From Alphaproteobacteria bacterium (GTDB taxonomy: Bacteria > Pseudomonadota > Alphaproteobacteria > SP197): a stretch of 38,298 nt of DNA. Shown here in pieces: positions 1 through 34,732 of this stretch. A program made the position numbers and the translations under genes. The stretch is from the NCBI GenBank assembly GCA_022822575.1, contig JAJEBJ010000493.1, positions 1 to 38,298 on the forward strand, written 5' to 3'. Position 1 is the stretch's first letter; each line of letters starts with the position of its first letter. The notes under the pieces were generated by a model. The model saw nothing but the letters and a program-made list of their open reading frames with translations. It was not told the origin of the DNA and did no database searches.

Positions 1-589
1 GCCCGTCGTGGTCGACGCATGGCCGACGGTAGATCGAGCGCAGCAGGGACATCGCTCGGTTGGCGGCCGACCAGCCATGGTCGGCGGTAATGCCGTTGAA
101 CCGGGCCTCGACGTCCGCGCGCCCGATGGCGTCGAGCGGGCGGGGGAGCCAGTCGCCGAGATAGCGGTTGGCCTCGTAGCGGTAGAGCTCGTTGGTCCGC
201 TTGGAGCGGTTGGGGTTCGCCGCCATGTACTGCTTGAAGCTATCGCCGAGCGTGGGCATGCCCCGCGCCTCGGCGCGCTCTCCGGCCGGATCGTCGCCGC
301 CGGCAACCTTGCCGAGGAGCTCCTGCGCCTTTCGCCGCGCCTGGTCGGCGGTGATCGGGCCGTAACGACCGATCACGACGCGCTTGTTGGGTGCCTTCCT
401 GCCGCCGTCGCCGCTCCGGTAGTTGACGATGAAGGCCTTGGTCCCGGAGGGATGGATGCGGACGCCGAAACCCGTGAGCTTCGCGTCCCATGCGATCCAC
501 GACTTCTCGCCCGGCTTGAGGGCATCGACGGTCCGCTTGGTGAGGTTCGCGCGCACCCTCGCGGTGCGTTTTCCGGTGCTGGTGTCCAT
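1..589 (-). CDS. Tyrosine-type site-specific integrase (P4/DUF4102-like), 5' part only; the catalytic C-terminus lies beyond the left window edge
   Basis: Absent from the ORF track because it is open at the edge. Manual minus-strand translation from the ATG at 589-587 gives MDTSTGKRTARVRANLTKRTVDALKPGEKSWIAWDAKLTGFGVRIHPSGTKAFIVNYRSGDGGRKAPNKRVVIGRYGPITADQARRKAQELLGKVAGGDDPAGE...DWLPRPLDAIGRADVEARF..., with no stop down to position 2. The LT..V..LKPG and L.GFGVR..PSG.K.F patterns are typical of the integrase arm-binding domain. An alternative in-frame ATG lies at 703. Confidence 0.85.
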   Translation of the reverse strand, partial: MDTSTGKRTARVRANLTKRTVDALKPGEKSWIAWDAKLTGFGVRIHPSGTKAFIVNYRSGDGGRKAPNKRVVIGRYGPITADQARRKAQELLGKVAGGDDPAGERAEARGMPTLGDSFKQYMAANPNRSKRTNELYRYEANRYLGDWLPRPLDAIGRADVEARFNGITADHGWSAANRAMSLLRSIYRRPCVDHDG

Positions 590-595
590 GGGAGG

Positions 596-624
596 ACAGT
601 AGCGACCGTCAGGTTTACAGTCAA
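596..624 (-). promoter_or_regulatory. Candidate sigma70-type promoter for the integrase (TTGACT-N17-TACTGT), placing the transcription start at or next to the ATG (leaderless)
   Basis: Minus strand reads TTGACT (624-619), a 17-nt spacer, TACTGT (601-596), then 6 nt (CCTCCC) and the ATG at 589. There is no Shine-Dalgarno sequence; the 6 nt before the ATG are CCTCCC. Confidence 0.35.
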
Positions 625-639
625 CACCACAGTCAACAC
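617..639. repeat. Tandem direct repeat ACAGTCAACAC x2 with 12-bp period
   Basis: Plus strand has acagtcaacac at 617-627, then c, then acagtcaacac at 629-639. Each copy carries a TTGACT box on the minus strand. It lies 28-50 nt upstream of the integrase ATG. Confidence 0.9.
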
Positions 640-882
640 TAGAAAAGAACTCGGTGGCCGCGCTTGGACGCGTTTGGCCCTTTTGAGGGCCGGGAGAACC
701 CATTCTAACCTCTGGAAATAAGGCCGTTAGGCCGCGTTACTGTCCACTCTGGCCGCGTGTGGCCGCAACATAAACACGAGTCTCATAACCTGAAGGTCGC
801 AACCTCGAGGCCTGCCCGTGCCTTTTGCCCGCTTGCGGCCGGCCGGCCGGCAGCTCCACGGAACGCAGCTTGTGGGCAAGGG

Positions 883-942
883 TCGCAGATCGGACCAGGG
901 AACGACGTTGCTCCATGCGACGATGTTCTGAGCCGGGATCAT
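883..942 (-). pseudogene. 20-codon N-terminal relic of an AbiEii/AbiGii-type nucleotidyltransferase toxin
   Basis: Minus-strand ATG at 942 gives MIPAQNIVAWSNVVPWSDLR. This matches the remembered family N-terminus MIP...I..W....PW....QVEQDL, but similarity stops just before the expected QVEQDL. The ATG overlaps the stop of the upstream ORF as ATGA, a typical toxin-antitoxin junction. Confidence 0.35.
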
Positions 943-1075
943 GCATCGACCAGCAGATGACGGCGCGCGATGATCCGCATCCGGACCATCGCGTTGGAGA
1001 GGTTCTGACGCGAAATCCGGCCGGTCGTCCCCGATGGCCCCGGCGATGTCGGGATAGCTCCGGCGCACGAGCGCA
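939..1075 (-). pseudogene. Frameshifted 3' relic of a helix-turn-helix gene upstream of the toxin relic
   Basis: Two minus frames join to give ...SYPDIAGAIG / TTGRISRQNLSNAMVRMRIIARRHLLVDA*, an HTH-like pattern (sigma region 4 or LuxR type). It needs a frameshift, and nothing N-terminal survives. Confidence 0.25.
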
Positions 1076-1109
1076 TTGGTCGCACGCAGGGCGCCGGCGG
1101 GCCTTTTTG

Positions 1110-1352
1110 GCCATGCGGCGGACGACCGCCAGGCACACGGCCGTGGCGTCAGCGAAGGCGTCGAAGTTGTTGCCGCTGGTGAAGGTGTCGCCGTTGTCGG
1201 TAATCCAGAGCGCGCGCGGCGCGGTCGCCGTCGAGAATGGCGTCGGCCAGGGCGCCGTGCATCGCCGGCGTCAGCGTGTTGTTCTTCTCCGTCGGGTCCA
1301 GGCGGATCTCCAGAACGTCCCGCCCGAGGGTCGCCGGCACCCGTTGAGTCAT
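1110..1352 (-). pseudogene. Enoyl-CoA hydratase/isomerase family gene, N-terminal fragment with a frameshift
   Basis: From the ATG at 1352: MTQRVPATLGRDVLEIRLDPTEKNNTLTPAMHGALADAILDGDRAARAL, then a 1-nt shift, then WITDNGDTFTSGNNFDAFAD. This fits the crotonase pattern L.lNRPe..NAl...m...l..al......r...itG.G..F.aG.D. No recognisable continuation follows. Confidence 0.45.
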
Positions 1353-1434
1353 GGCCGTCGTCTTTCCTGTCCATCCGCCCGGCGGACCGCTACCATGGGC
1401 GTGGCGTCCGCCCTTCGCCATGCCGGGAGGCCCG

Positions 1435-2271
1435 ATGTCGCTGACCCTGTCCCCGCTGTCACCGGCCCTTGGCGTCGAGGTCTCCGGCGTCAACCTCGCC
1501 TCGCCGGTCGAAGGCGGGACGGCGGCTGCCTTGCGCGATGCGTTCCGGGAACACCATCTGCTGCTGTTGCGCGGCCAGGAAATCGACGTGGACGCCCAGA
1601 TACGGTTCGCGACGCTGTTCGGTCCCGTCTCGCACCGCGGCGCTTACATGAAGGGCCGCGATTTCAGCCACGTCTCCAACGTGCGCGAGGGCGGCATCCT
1701 GGGCTCAGGCGTCCTGCGCTTCCATTCGGACCATACCTTCTTCCGTCATCCGCTCAGGGCCATCTGTCTTTACGCCATCGAGATTCCGCCGTCGGGCGGT
1801 GACACGCTGTTCGCCAACGCGGCGGCGGCCTACGCCAACCTTCCCGACGAGCTGAGGCAACGTATTGCAGGCCGCCGGTCGCTCCAGCTCTTCGACTACA
1901 GCGGTGACTACAACCGCCGCGTCCTCGAGCGCGACGCCGCGCCCGATGCTCCGCGCTGCTGGCATCCGCTGACCATAGAAGACAGTGCGGGCCGCACAGT
2001 GCTCTTCATGCACGCCCACACAACCGCGGCCGTTGACGGCCTGGGCAACGCCGACACCGGCGCGCTGATCGAGGAGCTGGTGGCCTACATCGCCGATCCC
2101 GCCGTCGGTTATCGCCACGCCTGGCGGCCGGGCGACGTGATCGTCTGGAACAACATCACGCTGCAACACGCCCGCACCGACTTCGACGCGCGCGCCCGCC
2201 GCACCCTGCGTCGCGTCCCGATCGCCGTCAGCGAGGCCGAGGCGTGGGACGAGACGGCGGCAGTGACCTGA
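1435..2271 (+). CDS. TauD/TfdA-family Fe(II)/2-oxoglutarate-dependent dioxygenase
   Basis: ORF 1351..2271. The ATG at 1435 is preceded by GGGAGG. Sequence: MSLTLSPLSPALGVEVSGVNL...FHSDHTFFRHPLRAICLYAIEIPPSGGDTLFAN...WRPGDVIVWNNITLQHAR, giving an H.D...H iron triad in TauD-like context. Confidence 0.85.
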   Translation: MSLTLSPLSPALGVEVSGVNLASPVEGGTAAALRDAFREHHLLLLRGQEIDVDAQIRFATLFGPVSHRGAYMKGRDFSHVSNVREGGILGSGVLRFHSDHTFFRHPLRAICLYAIEIPPSGGDTLFANAAAAYANLPDELRQRIAGRRSLQLFDYSGDYNRRVLERDAAPDAPRCWHPLTIEDSAGRTVLFMHAHTTAAVDGLGNADTGALIEELVAYIADPAVGYRHAWRPGDVIVWNNITLQHARTDFDARARRTLRRVPIAVSEAEAWDETAAVT

Positions 2272-2306
2272 CCGGCACGAGGGGCCGAGGGCATACGGGA
2301 GGAACC

Positions 2307-2420
2307 ATGGCCGAACCCATCGTCGAGACCCGGATCGCCTGGCCAGGCGGTGCGCACTGCGCGATCATGCTCTGCTTCGACTTCCACGCCCGGGTCGCCC
2401 GGGAAGGCAAGTCCCCTTGA
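2307..2420 (+). pseudogene. 37-codon stub resembling the N-terminus of a polysaccharide deacetylase-family protein
   Basis: GGGAGGA, then the ATG at 2307: MAEPIVETRIAWPGGAHCAIMLCFDFHARVAREGKSP*. WPGGA.CA..L.FDF is the usual opening of this family. The stop TGA at 2418-2420 overlaps the TTG start of the next gene as TTGA. Confidence 0.3.
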
Positions 2421-3190
2421 GTGGCGGGCGATTCGCCGGCAAGTCCGTGATCGTCACCGGGGCGGCGGGCGGCATCGGGCGGGCGACGGTGTTGCGCCTG
2501 GTGTCCGAAGGCGCCTCGGTGCTGGCCGTCGACGTCAAGGAACGGGAACTTTGCGAGACCGCCGCCATGGCCGGCGGGCAGGTTTTGCGTACGCTCGTCG
2601 CCGATGTCGCCGACCGCGCCCAGCCAGAGCGCATCGTGAAGGAAGCCCTCGACGCCTACGGCAGCCTCGACCATCTCGTCAACAATGCCGGCATCGGCGG
2701 CAGGGGCGGCGGTGTGGCCGAAGCGAGCGATGCGGACTGGGACGGCGTCCTCGACGTGAACCTCGGTTCGGTCTTTCGCATGTCACGTGCCGCGTTCGGG
2801 TGCCTGCCGCGGCCCGGCGGCAGGATCGTCCAGATCGCCTCCGTCTTCGGTCTCGTCGGCTTTCCCGGCTCCGCCGCCTATGCCGCCGCCAAGGGCGCGG
2901 TCGCCCAGCTCACGCGCCAGATGGCAGCCGACCACGCCGCCGCCGGCGTCAACATCAACGCCATCGCCCCCGGGGTGATCGACACGCCGATGACGGCGCG
3001 GAACATCCGGACGGACGCATGGTACCGGCAGGCCATGATCCGCAACACGCCCATGGGCGTTGGAGGCCCCGACGACGTCGCGGGCGTTGTGGCCTTTCTC
3101 CTGAGCGACGACGCCCGCTACATCAACGGCCAGGTCATTGTCGTCGACGGCGGCTGGCTGGCCACGCGATACCTGCCCAAGGAACACTGA
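2417..3190 (+). CDS. SDR-family oxidoreductase (short-chain dehydrogenase/reductase)
   Basis: ORF 2417..3190 with a TTG start. Motifs: KSVIVTGAAGGIGRA (TGxxxGxG), NNAGI, and YAAAKGAV (catalytic YxxxK). Confidence 0.9.
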   Translation: MSGGRFAGKSVIVTGAAGGIGRATVLRLVSEGASVLAVDVKERELCETAAMAGGQVLRTLVADVADRAQPERIVKEALDAYGSLDHLVNNAGIGGRGGGVAEASDADWDGVLDVNLGSVFRMSRAAFGCLPRPGGRIVQIASVFGLVGFPGSAAYAAAKGAVAQLTRQMAADHAAAGVNINAIAPGVIDTPMTARNIRTDAWYRQAMIRNTPMGVGGPDDVAGVVAFLLSDDARYINGQVIVVDGGWLATRYLPKEH

Positions 3191-3492
3191 AGCGACCGGG
3201 ATCCAAACGCTCCCGGAGCGACCTTTGGCGGCTTGATCAGGGTCGCTGACGGCCGCGCCTTCGTCGAGGCCATCGAAGCGCACCCGCGCACCGTGCCGGA
3301 GGCTCTGAACCGCAGGGGAGGATTGCTCGAGCCTCCGAAGCCCGCTCCCGTTGCGGGTTTCCGGATTTCGAACGTGTCCGCAACGACAGGTCAACACATG
3401 ATGGCATCGATCAGGGTCCGGGATTCCGGGTCGGATAGCAGGGCAAGCTGCGGTCCGTGTCGGCATGACCAGGCTGGCGTGGGAGGGTCCCC

Positions 3493-3521
3493 TTGTCGGA
3501 CGGGCAGACAATCCCTATATT
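3493..3521 (+). promoter_or_regulatory. Candidate sigma70-type promoter for hpf-ptsN-hprK (TTGTCG-N17-TATATT)
   Basis: TTGTCG at 3493-3498, a 17-nt spacer, TATATT at 3516-3521. It sits in a locally AT-richer patch about 84 nt upstream of the hpf ATG. Confidence 0.3.
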
Positions 3522-3604
3522 TCGGACCACGAAACGCGGGCGAGGTCCATGTCCGCGACCGGGGATGTTGGTAGTGGTCCCCGGTGACGATGAGCGGATC
3601 ATCA

Positions 3605-3901
3605 ATGAAGATTTCCATCACAGGTCATCAGACAGACGTCAGTGAAGCGTTGCGCCATCACGTGGAGCAGGCTCTCGGCAGCGCCATCGACAAGTACTTT
3701 GCCGATTCGAAGAGCGCTCACGTGACATTCTCGCGCGAGGCGCTGTCTCACCGGGTGCACATCTCTGTCCATGTCGGGCACGACATCAATGCCGAGGGGC
3801 AGGGCGATGCGCAGACGGCGTCTGCCGCGTTCGGCGAGGCTATGGAACATGTCGCAAAGCAGCTCCGGCGCAACAAGCGGAAACTGCGCGAACATCACTG
3901 A
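3605..3901 (+). CDS. hpf: Ribosome hibernation promoting factor (short HPF / sigma-54 modulation protein family)
   Basis: ORF 3584..3901; start taken at the MKISITG ATG at 3605. Sequence: MKISITGHQTDVSEALRHHVEQALGSAIDKYF...HISVHV...AMEHVAKQLRRNKRKLREH. Confidence 0.9.
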   Translation: MKISITGHQTDVSEALRHHVEQALGSAIDKYFADSKSAHVTFSREALSHRVHISVHVGHDINAEGQGDAQTASAAFGEAMEHVAKQLRRNKRKLREHH

Positions 3902-3939: not shown

Positions 3940-4404
3940 ATGGAGATCTCCTCGCTGGTGACGCCTGATTGCGTGGTCCCGCGCCTGCGGTCGGCCAGCA
4001 AGAAGCAGGTACTCCAGGAATTGGCCCGCCACGCATCGCGTGTCGCCGGCACCGACGAACGGGTCATCTTCGACGCCCTTCTCGAACGTGAAAGACTGGG
4101 CTCGACGGGTGTGGGGCTGGGCATCGCCATTCCCCATGCCAAGCTGCCCGGACTGCCGGGCCTCCATGGTGTCTTCGCGCGGGCGACCTCGCCGATAGAC
4201 TTCGATTCCGTGGATGAGCAGCCGGTCGATCTCGTGTTCCTGCTTCTGGCCCCGGAAGATGCCGGTGCGGACCACCTCAAGGCCCTCGCGAGGGTGTCGC
4301 GTCTGCTTCGCAACCACGACATCTGCCAGAAACTCCGGGGTGCTGACAGTCAGGAGGCCATCTATGCCCTCCTGACTGAAGAGGAGACGGGCCATCCGGA
4401 CTGA
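3940..4404 (+). CDS. ptsN: PTS IIA-like nitrogen regulatory protein PtsN (EIIA-Ntr)
   Basis: ORF 3940..4404. Sequence: LRSASKKQVLQELARHA...ERERLGSTGVGLGIAIPHAKLPGL, which includes the phosphorylatable His. Confidence 0.9.
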   Translation: MEISSLVTPDCVVPRLRSASKKQVLQELARHASRVAGTDERVIFDALLERERLGSTGVGLGIAIPHAKLPGLPGLHGVFARATSPIDFDSVDEQPVDLVFLLLAPEDAGADHLKALARVSRLLRNHDICQKLRGADSQEAIYALLTEEETGHPD

Positions 4405-4410
4405 ACTGTC

Positions 4411-4851
4411 GTGCTGATTCACGGCACCTCGGTCGAGATCGACGGTGCCGGTATCCTGTTGCGCGGTCCACCGGGAAGCGGCAAGAGCGATCTTGCCCTT
4501 CGTCTGATCAGCGAACGCGAGGCGCGGCTGGTGGCCGACGACCAGGTCGAGGTCAGCTTGCGGGACGGACGCCTGGTGGCCCGGGCGCCGGAGACTCTGG
4601 CGGGCATGATCGAAGTGCGGGGACTGGGCATTGCCAGGCTCGACCACCACCCTTCCTGGGCTCTTCACCTGGTCATCGAACTCTGCGATACCGTGGCCAG
4701 GTTTCCCTCGCCCAGCCAGACAGTGATTGCCGGGCATCCTCTGCCGGTCTGCCGACTTCGTGCAACCGAAGCCTCCGCCGTGGCCAAGGTGATGCTGGCG
4801 GTGAAGGCGCTCCAGGGCACGGTGTCCATCGACGGTGGTCCAGGCTGCTGA
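4411..4851 (+). CDS. hprK: HPr kinase/phosphorylase, short alphaproteobacterial form (C-terminal kinase domain only)
   Basis: ORF 4411..4851 with a GTG start 6 nt after the ptsN stop. Sequence: MLIHGTSVEIDGAGILLRGPPGSGKSDLALRLI...GMIEVRGLGI, showing the P-loop and signature. Confidence 0.9.
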   Translation: MLIHGTSVEIDGAGILLRGPPGSGKSDLALRLISEREARLVADDQVEVSLRDGRLVARAPETLAGMIEVRGLGIARLDHHPSWALHLVIELCDTVARFPSPSQTVIAGHPLPVCRLRATEASAVAKVMLAVKALQGTVSIDGGPGC

Positions 4852-5104
4852 ATGCAGGGCCTCGAGAACGCGGCGATGCCGATAGTCATCGCCGGCGCCA
4901 CGAGCTGGGGCCTGGGGGTCGTGGCGTCTCGATGCAGGAAATCCGCTACCGCAGGCTGAGGGCCTTCGCCGCCCGGTGAAGAGACCTCCGATCCTCGGGG
5001 CCATTGGCGACGGCGTCGCTTTCGCGGGGGTGAGTTGTGCCGTCTTGCACGAAGCGCGAAAGTGGCATGGGCGCGACGATGCGGCCGGAAGGAGACTGTC
5101 TGTC

Positions 5105-6130
5105 ATGTTCGAGGAACTGGGGCTCGGGGAACTGACGCCGCTCACGGCTTCTGTGCTGCTGGGCATGGTGCTCGGCGGCGCCTATGGCGCGCTGGCGCAG
5201 CGTAGCGCCTTGTGCCTGCGCCGCAGCCTGGCAGGAAAGTGGCGCGACTGCTTGCCGGCGCTGGGCGTTTGGACGATGGCGCTGGCATGTGCGATCGCCG
5301 GAAGCCGACTGGCGGTTGCCGTCGACCTGATCTCGTTCGACGCGCACCGGTTTCTCGCGCCCGACCTGCCGGTCGCCTCCGCGCTGACGGGCGGTGCGTT
5401 GTTCGGGGCCGGCATGGTGCTGGCTGGCGGCTGCGTTTCGCGCCTGACGGTGCTGATCGGCACCGGCAATCTTCGCGCCCTGTTCGTCCTGCTCGTCTTT
5501 GCCGTCACGGCCCATGCGACGATGAAGGGTGTGCTGGCACCGGTGCGCGAGACGCTCGGCGCGGCAACCGTTCACGGCGGAGATGCGACCGCACTCACGG
5601 TGCTGCCCGGCGGGGAGGTCTGGCCGCTGGCTCTGGCGGCCGCCGCAGCGCTCTTCGCGCTTCGCTCCGGCGCGCCGGTCTCTCGCCTCGCCATGGGAGC
5701 TGCAATCGGGCTGCTGGTTCCACTCGGCTGGGCCGGCACGGGGTTCCTTCTGCAGGACGATTTCGACCCGATTCCCCTGCAGTCGCTGGGTTTCACGGGA
5801 CCAATGGCCGACACGCTGTTCTGGACCGTGGCGGCAACGGCCATTCCGGCCGGCTTCGGCACCGGCCTGGCTGCGGGCGTCGTTGGCGGAAGCCTGATCG
5901 CGGCGCTGACGTGCGGCGACTTCCGCTGGCTGAGCCTTGAAGGGCCGAGGCAGACCGGCCGCTACCTCGCCGGCGCCGTGATGATGGGGGTCGGCGGCGT
6001 GCTGGCGGGCGGCTGCACGGTCGGCGCCGGTCTTTCCGGCGTCTCGACCGCGAGCCTTGCCGCCCTGCTGGCGCTGGCTGCCATGGCGGTCTCGGCGAAA
6101 GCCGTCTGGGCGATGCTCGACGACCGGTAG
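5105..6130 (+). CDS. YeeE/YedE-family sulfur-compound (thiosulfate-type) membrane transporter
   Basis: ORF 4976..6130; start taken at the ATG at 5105 after GGAAGGAGA. It is a polytopic membrane protein with the two family motifs LAGGCVSR and LAGGCTVGAG. Confidence 0.8.
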   Translation: MFEELGLGELTPLTASVLLGMVLGGAYGALAQRSALCLRRSLAGKWRDCLPALGVWTMALACAIAGSRLAVAVDLISFDAHRFLAPDLPVASALTGGALFGAGMVLAGGCVSRLTVLIGTGNLRALFVLLVFAVTAHATMKGVLAPVRETLGAATVHGGDATALTVLPGGEVWPLALAAAAALFALRSGAPVSRLAMGAAIGLLVPLGWAGTGFLLQDDFDPIPLQSLGFTGPMADTLFWTVAATAIPAGFGTGLAAGVVGGSLIAALTCGDFRWLSLEGPRQTGRYLAGAVMMGVGGVLAGGCTVGAGLSGVSTASLAALLALAAMAVSAKAVWAMLDDR

Positions 6131-6173
6131 CGCGGGAGGGCCGGCGCCCGGAGCGGTTCGCAGGCGATCCGTT

Positions 6174-7460
6174 CTACCCGAACATGTCCCCGGCGATGGC
6201 GTCATACCAGCCGAGCGACTCCTCATAGGTCGCCTTGCGGGTCTCCTCGCTTTCCCCGGTCTGGGATATGAAGCCGTCGGTCTTGGCGATCTTCTCGTCG
6301 GTCCCTTCGTAGGAGGCCCCGACCTTGACGCCGTCATCGGTGCCGATGAGCGACCAGCAGGTGTTCGAGAAGCGCGCCGGAAACACCGTCGAGCCGGTAA
6401 GCGCCCCGCGCACCGCCATGGCGCACACCTTCGCCTGACTGTTGGCCGAGAACCCCGACTTCGGCATGTCGCCTTGCAGCGCGGCGTCTCCCAGCACATG
6501 AACGTTGGCGTCCGCCCGGCTTTCCATGGTGTGCGGCACCACCGGCGCCCAGCCGGACTCGTCGATGAGCCCCGCCAGTGCCGCGATGCGCCCCGCCTGC
6601 TGCGCGGGAATGACGTTGCAGACATCCACCGTCATCGCCTCGCCGTCCACCACCACCTCCATGGTCGAGGGACGCACCTCGACCCGGTCGCCACCGAAGT
6701 CAGGGCCGATGCGCTCGATCATGCCGGGATAGTGGCGCTGCCAACCGTCCTCGAACAGGCCCTGCTTGGAAAACTTCTCCTTGGGATCGACGATCAGGAT
6801 TTTCGCCGTCGGATTGGCCTGTTTCAGCACATGGGCCACCATGGAGATCCGTTCATAGGGTCCCGGTGGGCAGCGGAAAGGATTCGGCGGCGCGACCATG
6901 CAATAGGTGCCGCCCTGCGGCATGGCCTCGATCTGCGCCTTGAGAAGCTGGGTCTGCGAGCCGGCCTTGTAAGCGTGCGGCATGCGGTTCTGCTGCGACA
7001 GGTCCCACCCCGGGACGGACCCCGGCCGGAAGTCGATGCCCGGCGACAGGATGAGGCGGTCGTAGTCAAGGCTGGCCCCGCCGGCGAGTTCCACGCTCCG
7101 CTTGTCGCGATCGACGAAGACCGCCCAGTCGTGGACGACGTTGATCTCATGCCTTGCCGCCAGCGCGCCATAGCTGTGACCGATCGAGGCGAAATCGCGA
7201 AAGCCGCCCAGGTAGAGGTTCGAGAAGAAGCAGGAATAGTAGGCGCGGCTCGGTTCCACGAGCGTCACATCCACGGCGCCTTCCGAGTCCTTGGCAATGT
7301 AGCGCGCCGCCGTCGCGCCGCCCGCGCCACCTCCCACGACCACGACACGTGGACGGCCCTGTGCGAGTACCGCCGGCGCCGACAGCGCCGTTGTCGCCGC
7401 AACTGTGGATGCAAGGAAGCGGCGCCGACTCAGGCCGCTGTTTTCATTTCTCAGGTTCAT
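6174..7460 (-). CDS. fccB: Flavocytochrome c sulfide dehydrogenase flavoprotein subunit (FccB/SoxF family) with a Tat signal
   Basis: ORF 6174..7481; start at the ATG at 7460 after GGAGGG. Sequence: MNLRNENSGLSRRRFLASTVAATTALSAPAVLAQGRPRVVVVGGGAGGATAARY..., with the FAD fold and NPFRCPPGPYER typical of FCSD. Confidence 0.85.
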   Translation of the reverse strand: MNLRNENSGLSRRRFLASTVAATTALSAPAVLAQGRPRVVVVGGGAGGATAARYIAKDSEGAVDVTLVEPSRAYYSCFFSNLYLGGFRDFASIGHSYGALAARHEINVVHDWAVFVDRDKRSVELAGGASLDYDRLILSPGIDFRPGSVPGWDLSQQNRMPHAYKAGSQTQLLKAQIEAMPQGGTYCMVAPPNPFRCPPGPYERISMVAHVLKQANPTAKILIVDPKEKFSKQGLFEDGWQRHYPGMIERIGPDFGGDRVEVRPSTMEVVVDGEAMTVDVCNVIPAQQAGRIAALAGLIDESGWAPVVPHTMESRADANVHVLGDAALQGDMPKSGFSANSQAKVCAMAVRGALTGSTVFPARFSNTCWSLIGTDDGVKVGASYEGTDEKIAKTDGFISQTGESEETRKATYEESLGWYDAIAGDMFG

Positions 7461-7477
7461 GTCGTGTTCCCTCCGGT

Positions 7478-8218
7478 TCACGGATCGTCTTCCGCATCGC
7501 GAAAATACGCGGCGAGAGCGGCGATTTCCTCATCCGACAGACGCCCGGCCACGAGCTGCATGGCCGGATGCACCCGCTTTCCCCGCTTGTAGGCGTGCAA
7601 GGCTATCACGAAGTCGTCGAATGGCCATCCCGTTATCGAAGGGATGCCCTGGTCGGAACCGTCCGTCCGGTGGCAGGTGGTGCATTCGCCCGCGAGATAG
7701 GCGCCGTACTCGGGGTCTCCCCGGACGGTGAGGATCTGCGGGTCGAGGCCGTATTCCTCGGGCGTGGCGGTCGGCTCCGCCAGCGGAAGATCGGCGCGGG
7801 AACTGGAAAAGCCGCGCAGCCATGCCAGCAGGTCTGCCCTGTCGCCGGCTTCCGCCATGCCTCGGAAACTCATGCGCGAACCAGGCACGAGAGCGGTCGG
7901 GTCCGACAGAAAGGCGTCAAGCGTCGCCTCGGTCCAGACCAGGCCGCCTGCCCCCGCAGCCTTCATCGCCGCGGAGTAGCGAAAATCCGCGAGCCAACCG
8001 GCCGCACGGCCGAAGACATCATTGAGCTCAGGGCCGATCCGGTGTTTCGCGCCTTGACCCACCTGGTGGCAGCGCTTGCATTCAAGGAAGAGCGCCTTGC
8101 CGCGCTCGGCGTCGGCGCTCCATGCATCGACGGCCAGGGGAAAGACCAGCAGTGCCGCGCCAAGCAGCCTGAATGCGGCGAATGCCGCAGGACCGATCGT
8201 CCGGGACCGACGTCGCAC
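7478..8218 (-). CDS. fccA: Dihaem c-type cytochrome, probable FccA partner of the sulfide dehydrogenase
   Basis: ORF 7478..8446; the real start is probably the GTG at 8218 (AGGA 5 nt upstream, 5 nt after the soxZ stop). Signal peptide MRRRSRTIGPAAFAAFRLLGAALLVFPLAVDAWSA. Two CxxCH motifs are present (CKRCH, CTTCH). Confidence 0.8.
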   Translation of the reverse strand: MRRRSRTIGPAAFAAFRLLGAALLVFPLAVDAWSADAERGKALFLECKRCHQVGQGAKHRIGPELNDVFGRAAGWLADFRYSAAMKAAGAGGLVWTEATLDAFLSDPTALVPGSRMSFRGMAEAGDRADLLAWLRGFSSSRADLPLAEPTATPEEYGLDPQILTVRGDPEYGAYLAGECTTCHRTDGSDQGIPSITGWPFDDFVIALHAYKRGKRVHPAMQLVAGRLSDEEIAALAAYFRDAEDDP

Positions 8219-8225
8219 GGTGGTC

Positions 8226-8552
8226 CTAACCGACGTCAATCTCTTTGCGAATGCTGTAGACCGAGCCGTCGTCATCGATCCAACCGAACTCCAGAAGGCC
8301 CGACTCCGGAACGGACATTTCGAACTGAATGTAGGGATCGGCCGACACCGCCGGTTGCAGATCGACGGAAAGCGCCACCTCGCCGTTGTAGTGAACCGCG
8401 AAGCGGTTGATGATCTGGCGGGGCACGAGCTCGCCGTCGCTGCCATGGCGTAGCCCCGTATGCATCGGATGGGTAATCCGGGCCTTGACCGTGAAGGGGA
8501 CTCCCGCCACCACCGACTTCGGTAGTCTCACGCGCGGCTTGGGTTCCGCCAT
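8226..8552 (-). CDS. soxZ: Thiosulfate oxidation carrier complex protein SoxZ
   Basis: ORF 8226..8552. Sequence: MAEPKPRVRLPKSVVAGVPFTVKARITHPMHTGLR...INRFAVHYNGEVALSVDLQPAVSADPYIQFEM. There is no signal peptide, as expected for SoxZ. Confidence 0.85.
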   Translation of the reverse strand: MAEPKPRVRLPKSVVAGVPFTVKARITHPMHTGLRHGSDGELVPRQIINRFAVHYNGEVALSVDLQPAVSADPYIQFEMSVPESGLLEFGWIDDDGSVYSIRKEIDVG

Positions 8553-8562
8553 CGCCCGTTCC

Positions 8563-8979
8563 TCACGCGCAGCCGCCGACCGTCACCGCGATCGCCTGGG
8601 AGGCCTGGCGGAATGTGCCGTCCGCCATCTCCGCCACGGCGATCACCTTCTGGCTCCCGGCCAGCCGGATGCGGATCGTGGCCGCGGGCGGTACCAGCCT
8701 TCCGAATGTGAAAACGGCGACGCCGGGATTCGGGTTGCCGTCGGCGAACAGGGCGATTCGCCTGGCGCCCTCGGCAGCGATCTGAACCGGCACGGAGCCG
8801 CCGTTGTCGGCAATTTCGGGCGCCTCAAGAAGCACGCCGCCCTTCAGGGGCGTCGCCCCTCCCGTGAATTCCGCGATCGCCTGCTCAACGCCGTTCGAAG
8901 CCCGGGCCAGACCGACAGGAACCAGCGCCGCCGCGGCGGCGGCGCTGAGCCGCAAAACATCCCTGCGCGTCGGAGCGAT
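8563..8979 (-). CDS. soxY: Thiosulfate oxidation carrier protein SoxY (C-terminal GGC carrier cysteine); start codon uncertain
   Basis: The ORF track gives 8563..8955 (TTG). The protein ends ...AIAVTVGGCA. The in-frame sequence upstream encodes (I)IAPTRRDVLRLSAAAAAALVPVGLARA, a Tat-type signal. That stretch has only ATC/ATT/ATA codons available after a GGAGGAGG Shine-Dalgarno sequence. The end coordinate 8979 assumes an ATC start. Confidence 0.75.
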   Translation of the reverse strand: MAPTRRDVLRLSAAAAAALVPVGLARASNGVEQAIAEFTGGATPLKGGVLLEAPEIADNGGSVPVQIAAEGARRIALFADGNPNPGVAVFTFGRLVPPAATIRIRLAGSQKVIAVAEMADGTFRQASQAIAVTVGGCA

Positions 8980-8989
8980 GATGCAGCCT

Positions 8990-9288
8990 CCTCCAATTCG
9001 CCAGATACCCGGCGATATGGCTCTCCATGGCGACGCCTGTCAAGCCCCTGCAGCCCCAGGATTCGGCCTTCTGCATGATGACGGAGAGTATCGGCGCAAA
9101 GCGGTTTGCCGCCGCCGCCGTCGTCGATGGTCTTCCAGATTCGCCGGCCTTCGTGCTGAGAGTGAATGAAGCAGCGTCTGGCGCCCGAAGGCGCCAAAGC
9201 CCTTCAGTTCGGTATCGCGCACATCCAGGATGACCTTCCTTGGTTTGAGCGTATCGACCCGGTATTGGGTGAGGTGTAGTGTGGCCAT
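8990..9288 (-). pseudogene. Frameshifted 5' relic of a P4/DUF4102-type integrase
   Basis: GGAGGA, then the ATG at 9288: MATLHLTQYRVDTLKPRKVILDVRDTELKGFG. After a frameshift: APSGARRCFIHSQHEGRRIWKTIDDGGGGKPLCADTLRHHAEGRILGLQG. After a second shift: VAMESHIAGYLANW. The pattern parallels the intact integrase at 1-589. Only about 100 codons remain and they run directly into the soxY start region. Confidence 0.6.
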
Positions 9289-9484
9289 GATCGTTCCTCC
9301 GGTGTTCTGTGACATTGGGGGAAGAAGGACATCGCCCTGCCGTCCGCAGTTGCAGAAACGAGAGGAATTAAGTACGTTGTATCAGTTGATTAGCACCACA
9401 GTGTGGCCTCTTTTGTCATGGGTGACATGCCCTGCACAAGGGGGGAATTGAAGACGTGACACGCTGCACTCCGGCAGGTGCCGC

Positions 9485-9889
9485 ATGATCGGCGTCGTTC
9501 TTGTGACCCACGGCCGGCTGGCCGACGAATTTGTCGCCGCCATCAGGCATATCGTGGGTGACCAGGAGAACATGACGGCGATCTCGATCGGACCCGACGA
9601 CGACATGAAGCAGCGCCGCGCCGACATCGTCGAGGCGGTTGCCGGTGTCGATACCGGTTCGGGCGTCATCATCCTCACAGACATGTTCGGTGGCACGCCG
9701 TCCAATCTCGCAATCTCGGTCATGAACCCCGGAAAGGTGGAGGTCATCGCCGGCGTCAATCTGCCGATGCTTGTCCGATTGGCATCGGTCCGCCAGAACG
9801 CCACGGTCGAAGAGGCCGTTGCCGCCGCACAGGAAGCGGCACGGCGCTACATCAACGTGGCCAGCAGCCTCCTCAAGACTGAATCGTGA
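9485..9889 (+). CDS. PTS EIIA component, mannose/fructose family (ManX/PtsM-like regulatory EIIA)
   Basis: ORF 9485..9889. Sequence: MIGVVLVTHGRLADEFVAAIRHIVG...IILTDMFGGTPSN, which includes the phospho-His. Confidence 0.9.
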   Translation: MIGVVLVTHGRLADEFVAAIRHIVGDQENMTAISIGPDDDMKQRRADIVEAVAGVDTGSGVIILTDMFGGTPSNLAISVMNPGKVEVIAGVNLPMLVRLASVRQNATVEEAVAAAQEAARRYINVASSLLKTES

Positions 9890-10173
9890 CAGCCGGTTCC
9901 TCTCCTGCGGTGATGCGCCGCTGTTTCACCATTGTCAACGAGCGGGGATTGCATGCCCGGGCGGCGGCACGCTTTGTTGCGGCACTCGACTCCTTCAGCG
10001 CCACGGTCGAGGTGGAAAAGGACGGCATAAGAGTGTCCGGCAGGTCTATCATGGGTCTCATGATGCTGGCCGCCGCCATTGGCACGACTATCGAGGTGGA
10101 GGCCCGTGGCGACGATGCCGGGGCTGCTCTCGATGCCCTCGGGACACTCGTCGGGAACCGGTTTGATGAATAG
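9886..10173 (+). CDS. HPr-family phosphocarrier protein (NPr/PtsO-like)
   Basis: ORF 9886..10173. The GTG start overlaps the EIIA stop as GTGA; an alternative ATG lies at 9913. Sequence: FTIVNERGLHARAAARFV (His15 region) and SGRSIMGLMML (Ser46 region, the HprK target). Confidence 0.85.
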   Translation: MTAGSSPAVMRRCFTIVNERGLHARAAARFVAALDSFSATVEVEKDGIRVSGRSIMGLMMLAAAIGTTIEVEARGDDAGAALDALGTLVGNRFDE

Positions 10174-11923
10174 GAAAGGCGGTCTGCAGCTGGCCGGACT
10201 GGGAATTGCACCGGGCATCGCCATCGGGCCGGCCTATGTCGCCGAGAGCGGCGCCCTCGAGGTGCCGGTCCATGAGATCGCAACGGGCGAGGTGGCGGCG
10301 GAAATTGACCGGTTCCACGATGCCGTGGCCCGCGGGCGCGAGCAACTCGCCGTCCTCTCCCAGAAGGCGCGGACACTGCACGGAAGCGCTGCCGAGGAAC
10401 TCGAGTACCTGCTGGTCGCGCACAGCCGGATGCTGGAAGGATCGCGGTTGGTCCGGGGTGTCGAGGAGAGGATCCGCGACCAGCGCCTCAATGCGGAGGC
10501 CGCGGTTTCCCAGGAGGTCGGCGATATCGTCCGGGCCTTCGAGGACATGAATGACAGCTATCTCGCCGAACGCAGCAAGGACGTGCGCGACGTCGGCAAG
10601 CGCCTGTTGCACAATCTGATGGCCGCCCCTTACCGCGCCCTCACCGATCTTGCCCCGGGGACTGTTGTAGTGGCCGACGAACTCACGCCGGCCGACACCG
10701 CGCTCCTCGACCCGCGCCGTGTTGCGGGGTTCGTCACGGCGTCGGGCGGCGCCCAGGACCACACCGGCATCCTGGCCCGATCCCTTGGTCTGCCAGCTGT
10801 GGTTGCCACCGGAGAACTGCTCGCAAATGTGGCGAGCGGTGATCGCGTGATTGTCGACGGCGGCACCGGTACCGTGGTCATCAATCCCGATGCCGACGCC
10901 GAGCGGGCTTTCGAGAAACGCCGCGGCGAACTCCGCGTGCAGGCCCGCAAGCTCCGCCGCCTGCGTGATGTCCCCGCGGTCTCGCGAGATCAGGTCCGCA
11001 TCGGCCTTCTGGCCAACGTGGAACTCGCCAGTGAAATTGATCCCGCCCTCGACCACGGCGCCGAGGGCATAGGTCTCTTCCGCACCGAGTACCTCTTTCT
11101 CAACCGCGACACCATTCCCGACGAGGACGAACAGTACGTTCACCTCGCCAACGTCGTCGAGCGCATGGCCGGCCGCACCGTGACCATCCGGACCCTGGAC
11201 GCCGGCAACGACAAGCTGCCCTATTCCCTCGGCGAACCGGTTGGCGCCGGCGCCAATCCCGCCATGGGACTGCGGGCCATTCGCCTGTCGCTCAAGTTTG
11301 GCGATCTCCTGGAGAACCAGCTCGCCGCCATCCTGCGCGCCGGCGCCCATGGCAGGGTGCGCATCCTCCTGCCGATGATCTCGACGACCTCGGAAGTGCG
11401 CCAGGTCCGCAAGGTAAGGGACAGGGTGGCCGAACGGCTCAACCGGGCGGGCGTGGCCATTGCCGACCCGTTGCCTCCGGTCGGCATCATGATCGAGATC
11501 CCCGGCGCCGCGCTGGCGGCTGATTCCCTGGCCGGGGTCAGCGACTTTTTCTCGATCGGCACCAATGACCTCACCATGTACACGCTCGCCATCGACCGCG
11601 GCGACGATCAGGTGGCCCACCTTTACAATCCGCTTCATCCGGCAGTGCTGCGGCTCATCCAGTTCACCACCGCTGCCGCCGAACGCGCCGGTATCGGCGT
11701 CAATGTGTGTGGCGAAATGGCAGGGGACGAGAGAATGACAGCGATTCTCGTCGGACTGGGTATCCGCGAACTTTCCATGGCCTCGTCCGGGGTGCCGCGG
11801 GTGAAGCAGCGCATCCGCAGCCTCGACATCACCGAGGCGGTGCGGCGGACAGAGGCGATCATGGAACAGAACGACTCCGGCATGGTGGCAAGCCTGCTCG
11901 ATGACTTCAACGCGCTCGCCTGA
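10166..11923 (+). CDS. ptsP: Phosphoenolpyruvate-protein phosphotransferase (PTS enzyme I) without an N-terminal GAF domain
   Basis: ORF 10079..11923; the ATG at 10166 overlaps the HPr stop by 8 nt. Sequence: [25 protein letters not shown]...[20 protein letters not shown] (active-site His)...[15 protein letters not shown]. Confidence 0.9.
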
Positions 11924-27494: not shown

Positions 27495-27570
<76 letters not shown>

Positions 27571-27646
27571 CTACGGCCCCTGAATTTGGAATCGGTATTC
27601 CTGCAACCTATGGACAGGCGGCCACGGGTGCAAGACCGGCATCTCC

Positions 27647-34656: not shown

Positions 34657-34732
34657 TGGTGCCCAGGGGCGGAATCGAACCACCGACACCATGATTTTCA
34701 GTCATGTGCTCTACCAACTGAGCTACCTGGGC
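34657..34732 (-). tRNA. tRNA-Phe (anticodon GAA)
   Basis: Reverse complement: GCCCAGGTAGCTCAGTTGGTAGAGCACATGACTGAAAATCATGGTGTCGGTGGTTCGATTCCGCCCCTGGGCACCA. Acceptor stem GCCCAGG/CCTGGGC, anticodon stem CATGA/TCATG, loop CTGAAAA, and an encoded CCA. Confidence 0.95.

Follow-up and report, generated by a model that had tools for sequence, protein, structure and literature searches.

The window analysed here, a whole stretch of 38,298 nt from an alphaproteobacterial contig (JAJEBJ010000493.1, assembly GCA_022822575.1), holds a group of sulfur-oxidation genes in the middle of a gene string of the regulatory phosphotransferase system (PTS), between the HPr kinase gene hprK and the EIIA-Man gene manX. 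The segment from 4864 to 9410 is very probably the decayed remnant of an integrase-type island, inserted once in a site-specific manner and carrying a portable sulfur cassette, with no sign of a functional link to the PTS. A preliminary description of this DNA had placed yeeE/yedE on the plus strand and soxY-soxZ-fccA-fccB on the minus strand between hprK and the EIIA gene, and these identities were confirmed with Pfam and NCBIfam profiles, by which all genes were assigned. Relatives were collected by an HprK scan with one genome per species, after which all proteins of the window were mapped onto the returned loci; L-numbers denote loci from other assemblies.

The proposal that mobile-element-borne DNA landed within an hprK-manX-npr-ptsI string is borne out by empty sites, an integrase relic, flanking repeats and the occurrence of the same cassette in other mobile contexts. 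In four close relatives with an empty site (L011, OZ219917; L013; L050; L051) hprK is directly followed by manX at a spacing of only 84-85 bp, and hprK has the same length and stop codon as in the window; relatives without the relic do not share the gene order of the window, so that the refuting condition set in the preliminary description came out in its favour. The same cargo layout recurs in L010 (contig CBDCRU010000002; HprK 95% identical) and L052 (HprK 94% identical), which share the 4,547-bp insert with the window and form one clade with it. In L012 (OZ219747) a gap of 620 bp between hprK and manX holds an integrase stub only and no cassette. Neighbour-joining trees of both flanks give the topology (((window,L010),L052),L012), with the empty-site genomes outside and L014 as the outgroup. 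This topology argues for a single acquisition on the stem branch of the relic-bearing clade, since an insert already present in the earlier ancestor would have had to be lost precisely and independently several times. Between L010 and the window, the cargo has diverged at synonymous sites (dS 0.04-0.13) as much as the flanks have, which points to vertical inheritance since the gain. Presence or absence at one site among close relatives, a recombinase gene at one end, here in a non-functional copy, and direct repeats at both junctions mark the segment as an island.

Both ends of the insert coincide with short sequences that resemble an attachment (att) site. The empty site reads hprK-TGA-ATGCnGGGCCTC-TTGTGTAATGGGTG, the candidate attB sequence is TGCAGGGCCTCTTGTGT, and the att-like target TGC(A)GGGCCTC(TTGTGT) lies immediately 3' of the hprK stop codon. 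In the window the left junction consists of ATGCAGGGCCTC followed by GAGAAC, the last bases of this left core being shared with the empty site, and the right junction consists of GTGTGGCCTC followed by TTTTGTCATGGGTG. The right core is similar to GTGCGGCnnnCCGTGT, the sequence at which the element ends in intact integrase relatives. The flanking direct repeat is imperfect over 10-12 bp, with 6 bp exact, and no long terminal direct or inverted repeats were found at the bounds of either the insert or the cassette. The first ~18 bp of the left arm are shared with the remnant in L012, and the arm as a whole has no match to cassette copies elsewhere. L012 contains three copies of a GAGTGCAGG-type core, with ~125 bp of extra DNA (10441-10565) between the hprK stop and the left end of the island bounded by a further GAGTGCAGG copy, an arrangement that suggests a second or repeated recombination at the same core. 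Immediately right of the junction in the window, ~60 nt upstream of manX, stands a palindrome, TGTCA-TGGG-TGACA (9414-9427), whose arms match perfectly in the window, L010 and L012, almost perfectly in L052 (TGTTA...CGACA) and imperfectly in the empty-site genomes (TGTAA...TGACA or TGGCA); it could be a leftover of the att site or serve as an operator.

The right-hand part of the insert contains what is left of a tyrosine integrase. The intact 373-aa protein of L057 carries Arm-DNA-bind_3, SAM-like and Phage_integrase domains (Pfam), and tblastn with this protein recovered three relic segments, namely aa 1-32 at 9288-9193, aa 35-62 at 9197-9114 after a frameshift and, with aa 63-155 deleted, aa 156-178 at 9115-9047, at 94%, 75% and 87% identity. 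With its two frames joined, the repaired 62-aa N-terminus has counterparts in a single frame at 19 metagenomic loci (52-83% identity). The frameshifted integrase 5' end that had been placed at 8990-9288 is therefore real and has one frameshift, but its extent is corrected to 9047-9288; the stretch downstream of 9047 was rejected as integrase and is the conserved region upstream of soxY. Pfam gave no match on raw or hand-repaired relic peptides, the relic being validated through intact homologues only, and tblastn of the relic against plasmids gave none either. The structure of the relic is identical in L010 and L052, and the stub of L012 comprises only aa 3-39, without the frameshift. Conservation between the insert and intact elements extends to the 120 bp 5' of the integrase and to the element end ...CCACAGGTGCGGCnnnCCGTGT, which itself resembles the attB TGCnGGGCCTCTTGTGT. 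The AT-richer spacer noted earlier was also recovered, with a GC content of ~0.58 around 9000-9750 against 0.64-0.70 elsewhere and of 0.573 for 9051-9411. With only aa 1-62, frameshifted, and aa 156-178 left, the integrase is destroyed; to judge from the truncated and frameshifted gene, the copy in the window has presumably lost its mobility, and the insert would now be fixed in place.

The intact integrase relatives are encoded by the leading gene of a tandem, overlapping Arm-DNA-bind_3/Phage_integrase pair (L057 10001-12288; L059 10001-12390). Downstream cargo of these pairs comprises restriction-modification, DUF7380/DUF4209 or PLD-type, defence-type genes. All lie at other loci, beside neither tRNA genes nor hprK, and without sulfur genes.

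Two alternative accounts of the insert can be weighed at this point. The flanking direct repeats could drive precise excision or deletion, and the cassette might then have been ancestral at the hprK/manX site and have been precisely deleted in the relatives without it. Such a history is highly unlikely: it needs independent clean losses along L050, along L051 and along L011 with L013, each leaving exactly one core copy, and in more distant outgroups the interval from hprK to manX is occupied by rapZ or is empty, and in none by sulfur genes. The integrase relic at the edge of the insert and the departure of cargo codon usage from that of the host also argue against it. A still smaller, practically negligible probability attaches to a chimera in which metagenome misassembly joined the sulfur genes to the PTS genes. 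The window does derive from a metagenome, but the layout is not an assembly artefact because it is present again in independent assemblies (L001-L009, the 1.96-Mb contig L010 and L052). Assemblies that were made independently, from different samples and with different technologies, have identical junctions (the metagenome-assembled genome (MAG) contig L010, L052 and L001), and several Logan contigs span the hprK-yeeE junction.

The suggestion that the insert replaced rapZ did not survive the comparison, as rapZ was already gone from the empty-site relatives, and distant outgroups alone have it in the interval from hprK to manX. The NCBIfam equivalog was found at this position in Acetobacteraceae and other distant relatives (L016-L028, L032-L044; e.g. 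L019 10417-11421); the gene order of these rapZ-bearing relatives is hprK-rapZ-manX-npr-ptsI, and neither hpf nor ptsN occurs within 10 kb of hprK. A search of the window and L010-L014 found neither rapZ nor a remnant of it, and the absence from the empty-site relatives places the loss of rapZ before the arrival of the island. L014 carries ~1.2 kb of unrelated DNA (10448-11652) at the same hprK/manX site, in which no rapZ, integrase or Pfam match was found; its interpretation as a toxin-antitoxin relic was dropped, there being no Pfam hit. The hprK/manX site appears to be an insertion hot spot in the clade.

The cargo of the island is a cassette that recurs as a unit. L046 and L049 share exactly the 4.1-kb cassette at 87.5% nucleotide identity within unrelated flanks, and the window aligns with L046-L049 at 84% nucleotide identity from 5046/5073 to 9048/9050, with weaker similarity back to ~4976. 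FccB homologues that are 89-91% identical stand within the same five-gene unit on other large MAG contigs. Altogether, the cassette was found in at least six unrelated contexts (84-87% nucleotide identity). In L046-L048 its surroundings comprise three tandem IS110 insertion sequences (IS), an IS66 fragment, a truncated integrase, CBASS, Prok-E2/JAB genes and another integrase; in L049 restriction-modification genes, a DDE transposase and DruA (Druantia); in L053-L055 DDE transposases on both sides; and in L056 ordinary metabolic genes. The cassette boundary in the window (9047-9050) coincides with integrase codon 178, the relic stopping exactly where the cassette starts, and ~130 bp upstream of yeeE are conserved across cassette copies. 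For the cargo, the ratio of non-synonymous to synonymous divergence (dN/dS) is 0.1-0.4 in comparisons inside the clade as well as with cassette copies from elsewhere. The composition of 4852-9484, which had been proposed as a check on foreign origin, gave a divided answer: pooled synonymous codon usage deviates (cargo distance 0.116 against 0.064 +/- 0.009 for host pools, with 0 of 2000 pools reaching it), whereas GC content (insert 0.668; flanks 0.668 and 0.646) and GC content at third codon positions (GC3; 0.75-0.84 versus 0.72-0.87) are the same as in the flanks. One copy, at 5800-10200 of L055, seems to be decaying: it has no called soxY or yeeE, and its flanks hold DDE transposases together with a PMSR gene.

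These observations lead to a proposed course of events. Before the insertion, hprK and manX were ~85 bp apart in a consolidated hpf-ptsN-hprK-manX-npr-ptsI string. The island very probably integrated into it by site-specific recombination at the att-like sequence 3' of the hprK stop, in a single event that predates the split between L012 and the three cargo-bearing genomes. The integrase has since been destroyed, and the cassette, fused to integrase codon 178, is one that moves among many genomes and islands. Either it came with the island and was later lost from L012 by deletion, or it entered the resident island afterwards by recombination. The latter order, in which the integrase island was inserted and decayed first, as in L012, and the cassette recombined into integrase codon 178 in the ancestor of the three cargo-bearing genomes, has a probability somewhat short of even. 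L012 keeps the relic and both island ends without a trace of the cassette, elsewhere the cassette occurs without such an integrase and flanked by IS elements, intact integrase relatives carry defence cargo and not sulfur genes, and the junction lies inside the integrase open reading frame (ORF) at a CAGGGG microhomology. A single internal deletion explains L012 equally well, however, and its shorter relic fits a larger deletion; moreover, no mechanism was identified by which the cassette would move alone, and it has no terminal repeats.

Several points weigh against the interpretation of 4864-9410 as an island remnant with a portable cassette. The flanking repeat could be microhomology and, because it is short and imperfect, is weak evidence when taken alone. 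No intact copy of the island was found at the hprK site, where we infer integrase-mediated integration, and the left end of the island neither matches intact integrase relatives nor could their far end be found. With GC and GC3 equal to those of the host, composition alone would not flag the insert. Consensus scans for promoters and terminators at the junctions gave nothing above background. Full function of the cassette is also made less certain by the lack, in the cargo clade, of a canonical start before the twin-arginine translocation (Tat) motif of soxY.

This start region deserves a closer description. The soxY frame opens at ATC 8977-8979, which is aligned with the start codons of other cassette copies (ATG in L046 and L047, GTG in L049), and all three cargo genomes (window, L010, L052) have ATC. 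The Tat motif TRRDVL (8962-8967) falls between this codon and the first canonical start, a TTG. SoxY would thus have either a non-canonical start codon or a lost Tat signal, and its expression or export may therefore be altered. At the other end of the protein, the sequence VTVGGCA (8563-8570) in the cargo clade corresponds to VTVGGCG in other cassette copies, neither being a full GGCGG. A SoxYZ carrier with a conserved C-terminal cysteine arm is nevertheless recognisable, though SoxY misses the SoxY_true equivalog cut-off. The region upstream of soxY contains TTGACA (9043-9038), a spacing of 17 nt, CCATAT (9020-9015) and GGAGGAGG (8994-8987), a promoter-like series whose function can be put forward from the motifs.

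The remaining genes of the cassette belong to recognisable families. The yeeE-family ORF spans 4976-6130, with a likely start at 5105 and two GGC cysteine motifs; its product falls below the NCBIfam TsuA cut-offs (75.7 bits versus 400 and 43 bits versus 645) and belongs to the wider Sulf_transp family only. The flavoprotein matches 5n1t_A (E 5e-112) and 1fcd_A in the PDB and is 75% identical to the sulfide dehydrogenase flavoprotein of Dinoroseobacter shibae. Its central and flavin-binding domains, typical of flavocytochrome c sulfide dehydrogenase (FCSD), and the adjacent dihaem cytochrome c define an FccAB/SoxEF pair. Neither soxXA nor soxB was found in the cassette, in those window ORFs (not all) that were scanned with Pfam or in the eight cassette loci examined.

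By analogy with known proteins, the flavocytochrome would oxidise sulfide in the periplasm (FCSD/SoxEF), SoxY of SoxYZ would carry the sulfane sulfur, and the YeeE-family protein would import sulfur in the manner of the YeeE-like SoxT importers (PMC11582611). The conservation of the 5' regions of yeeE and soxY suggests that each unit brings its own expression signals, and promoters of the cassette itself probably drive its expression. manX-npr-ptsI would have to be transcribed from a promoter within the 74 bp of native spacer that remain or within the island's right arm. Rfam (E <= 1) around the junctions and RNA folding of 4849-5104 and 6125-6180 gave nothing above background. Between hprK and yeeE the scans found no promoter, terminator or Rfam family, which speaks neither for nor against read-through.

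The preliminary description had gone further and envisaged a coupling of carbon- and nitrogen-status signalling with sulfur oxidation. The comparison does not support such a coupling, given the conserved upstream regions that belong to the cassette itself, its occurrence in at least six unrelated neighbourhoods, the unchanged constraint on the PTS genes and the location of intact integrase relatives at other loci. The location in the PTS string is best explained by the position of an att-like site and not by a regulatory connection. An adaptive position, in which yeeE came under read-through from hpf-ptsN-hprK and manX-npr-ptsI was uncoupled, linking PTS status to sulfur uptake and oxidation, is improbable. 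It is true that yeeE is co-directional with hprK and 253 nt downstream of it, with no terminator-like site or unusually stable structure between, and that three diverged genomes have kept the arrangement with its genes under purifying selection. However, the ~130 bp 5' of yeeE and the promoter-like soxY upstream region accompany the cassette in every context, selection on the PTS genes is unaltered by the insert, retention is expected anyway with the integrase dead, and the literature searched contained no PTS-sulfur link. Slightly less probable again is a mobile, self-sufficient 'mini-Sox' system without SoxXA and SoxB, with yeeE co-transcribed with hpf-ptsN-hprK and manX-npr-ptsI on an island-derived promoter. 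Here, the FccAB/SoxEF flavocytochrome would load sulfide-derived sulfane sulfur onto SoxYZ, from which the YeeE/SoxT-like protein would import sulfur; if this were true together with the co-transcription, the import of sulfur would be genuinely linked to PTS status at the level of regulation.

The interrupted gene string is a regulatory PTS locus, with EI, NPr/HPr, EIIA-Ntr and HprK present and permease genes absent, and no EIIB or EIIC was seen among the window ORFs scanned by Pfam. The gaps of 38 and 6 nt between hpf, ptsN and hprK were confirmed, as was the 8-nt overlap at 10166-10173 (ATG 10166; TAG ending 10173). The GTGA at 9886-9889 that had been read as an overlapping stop and start is present, but HPr more likely starts at ATG 9913, the start chosen by gene callers at the cargo-bearing L001 and L052 and at the empty-site L050; the equivalent of 9886 was called only at L051. 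HPr has the His in GLHARAA and the Ser in GRSIMG. The best full-length match of EI is PTS_I_fam/PtsI; the PtsP model aligns from model position 170 only, and this NCBIfam comparison found no N-terminal GAF domain of the EI-Ntr type (PtsP) in EI. Constraint on the PTS genes is equal or stronger in cargo-bearing than in empty-site genomes (dN/dS of 0.02 versus 0.07 for manX, 0.07 versus 0.12 for npr and 0.04 versus 0.08 for ptsI). The purifying selection on manX-npr-ptsI indicates that these genes are still in use despite the 4.5 kb, including an opposing operon, that separate them from hprK. The features of the locus are compiled in Table 1.

Table 1. Features of the hpf-ptsI region of the window, in order of position (strand: + or -; a dot where no strand applies)
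Feature	Positions	Strand	Evidence and remarks
hpf (ribosome hibernation / sigma-54 modulation protein)	3584..3901	+	Pfam Ribosomal_S30AE, E 2e-18; kept in all relatives
ptsN (EIIA-Ntr type, PTS_EIIA_2)	3940..4404	+	Pfam, E 2e-31; dN/dS 0.02-0.09
hprK, short alphaproteobacterial HPr kinase, 146 aa	4411..4851	+	Pfam Hpr_kinase_C, E 1e-19
Left att-like core copy ATGCAGGGCCTC	4852..4863	.	Directly after hprK stop; junction alignments with empty sites L011, L013, L050, L051
Left arm of island remnant, no recognisable gene	4864..4975	.	Matched at 4850-4881 by L012 (blastn)
Portable ~4.1-kb sulfur cassette with the 5' regions of its two transcription units	4976..9047	.	Nucleotide alignments with L046-L049; also in L053-L056
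YeeE/YedE-family (SoxT-like) sulfur transporter	5105..6130	+	Pfam Sulf_transp, E 9e-44; dN/dS 0.19-0.25
Flavocytochrome c sulfide dehydrogenase flavoprotein (FccB/SoxF type), Tat motif SRRRFL	6174..7460	-	Pfam FCSD_central PF21706, FCSD-flav_bind PF09242; dN/dS ~0.1
Dihaem cytochrome c subunit (FccA/SoxE type)	7478..8218	-	Pfam Cytochrom_C, Cytochrome_CBB3; two CXXCH motifs, CKRCH and CTTCH
soxZ	8226..8552	-	Pfam SoxZ; NCBIfam SoxZ_true 79.2 bits, cut-off 76
soxY	8563..8979 (first canonical start TTG 8955)	-	Pfam SoxY; NCBIfam SoxY_true 107 bits, cut-off 125
Conserved soxY upstream region	8983..9046	-	Alignment with L046, L049, further flanks unrelated
Tyrosine integrase relic (Arm-DNA-bind_3 type)	9047..9288	-	tblastn with the intact L057 protein (373 aa)
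5' region of the integrase and right arm of island, AT-richer	9289..9400	.	Conserved with L057-L062 and L012; GC 0.57
Right att-like core copy GTGTGGCCTC (GTGCGGCCTC in L010)	9401..9410	.	Junction alignment
Native remainder of hprK-manX intergenic region	9411..9484	.	Conserved in all nine genomes (alignment)
manX/ptsM (EIIA-Man type)	9485..9889	+	Pfam EIIA-man, E 2e-31; dN/dS 0.02 within cargo clade
npr/ptsH (HPr); alternative start GTG 9886	9913..10173	+	Pfam PTS-HPr
ptsI (EI, 585 aa, no GAF domain)	10166..11923	+	NCBIfam PTS_I_fam 515 bits; N-terminus MNRKGG...GIAPGIAIG

The region upstream of hpf is variable. In L050 (3746-6491) and L051, lptC-lptA-lptB lie directly 5' of hpf, without rpoN; L052 (2792-6491) has the order lptB-tauD-SDR-hpf, and the window (1-3583) has other content 5' of tauD. 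The codon usage of tauD and the SDR gene is somewhat deviant (0.17-0.18), and the assignment of the ORF at 8-721 as lptB was dropped, there being no Pfam hit. Farther downstream, genes for tRNA-Ala(GGC) (27505-27580) and tRNA-Phe(GAA) (34657-34732) lie among housekeeping genes (rpsA, pyrF, trpB-like, accD, folC-like), and the Pfam scans showed no integrase adjoining either of them.

The locus offers a clean, datable case in which a core regulatory operon gained an accessory module for sulfur oxidation, with the empty, relic-only and cargo-plus-relic stages all kept. The circulation of the 4.1-kb cassette in islands and IS-rich regions of uncultured Alphaproteobacteria bears on how heterotrophs acquire sulfide oxidation or detoxification, and the relic adds a member to a family of tandem-integrase islands with a non-tRNA att site. 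A caution also follows: the adjacency of sulfur and PTS genes is best explained by the location of the att site, not by shared function. It belongs to ordinary genome plasticity and raises no new biological question by itself.

Compared with the Sox system of Paracoccus and Dinoroseobacter (soxXYZABCDEF), the cassette shares the VTVGGC swinging arm of SoxY, a SoxZ above its equivalog cut-off, a flavoprotein like that of D. shibae and a dihaem cytochrome c. It differs in that no soxXA, soxB or soxCD was found in the cassette or the scanned ORFs of the 38-kb window, and in that SoxY is below the 'true SoxY' cut-off, ends in GGCA and, in the cargo clade, has ATC before the Tat motif. With the FccAB of Allochromatium vinosum (1FCD) and Thioalkalivibrio (5N1T) it has in common the two subunits, the FCSD central and flavin-binding domains, the two CXXCH motifs and the Tat signal on the flavoprotein; here, however, the predicted pair forms one operon with soxYZ, next to a YeeE-family transporter. 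In Hyphomicrobium denitrificans, YeeE-like SoxT transporters have been proposed to import SoxYZ-bound sulfur (PMC11582611). The cassette resembles that arrangement in having a YeeE/YedE-family membrane protein with conserved cysteine motifs beside sox genes, a likeness at the level of family and motif, and it differs in having no adjacent soxR, TusA or sHdr genes.

Among regulatory PTS loci, rpoN-hpf-ptsN is a known gene order. A second one is represented by the Brucella locus bvrRS-hprK-ptsM-ptsO (PMC2937029, PMC9491525). The locus described here agrees with these in its short HprK followed by EIIA-Man and NPr, in its hpf-ptsN pair and in the absence of permease genes, whereas it unites six genes in one string, hpf-ptsN-hprK-manX-npr-ptsI, has no rapZ and an EI without GAF domain, and has relatives without rpoN between lptB and hpf. 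The insert, finally, is like P4-like tyrosine integrase islands (Arm-DNA-bind_3) in its edge integrase reading inward, its short direct repeats, its presence/absence polymorphism, its accessory metabolic cargo and the decay of the integrase after fixation. It is unlike them in that its target is the 3' flank of the protein-coding hprK and not a tRNA gene, and in that 242 bp of integrase are left and the island has shrunk to 4.5 kb; the intact integrase relatives differ from this remnant by their tandem integrase pair and their defence cargo. Set beside these systems, the locus is a typical, well-resolved island insertion with a degraded integrase and a recurrent accessory sulfur cassette.

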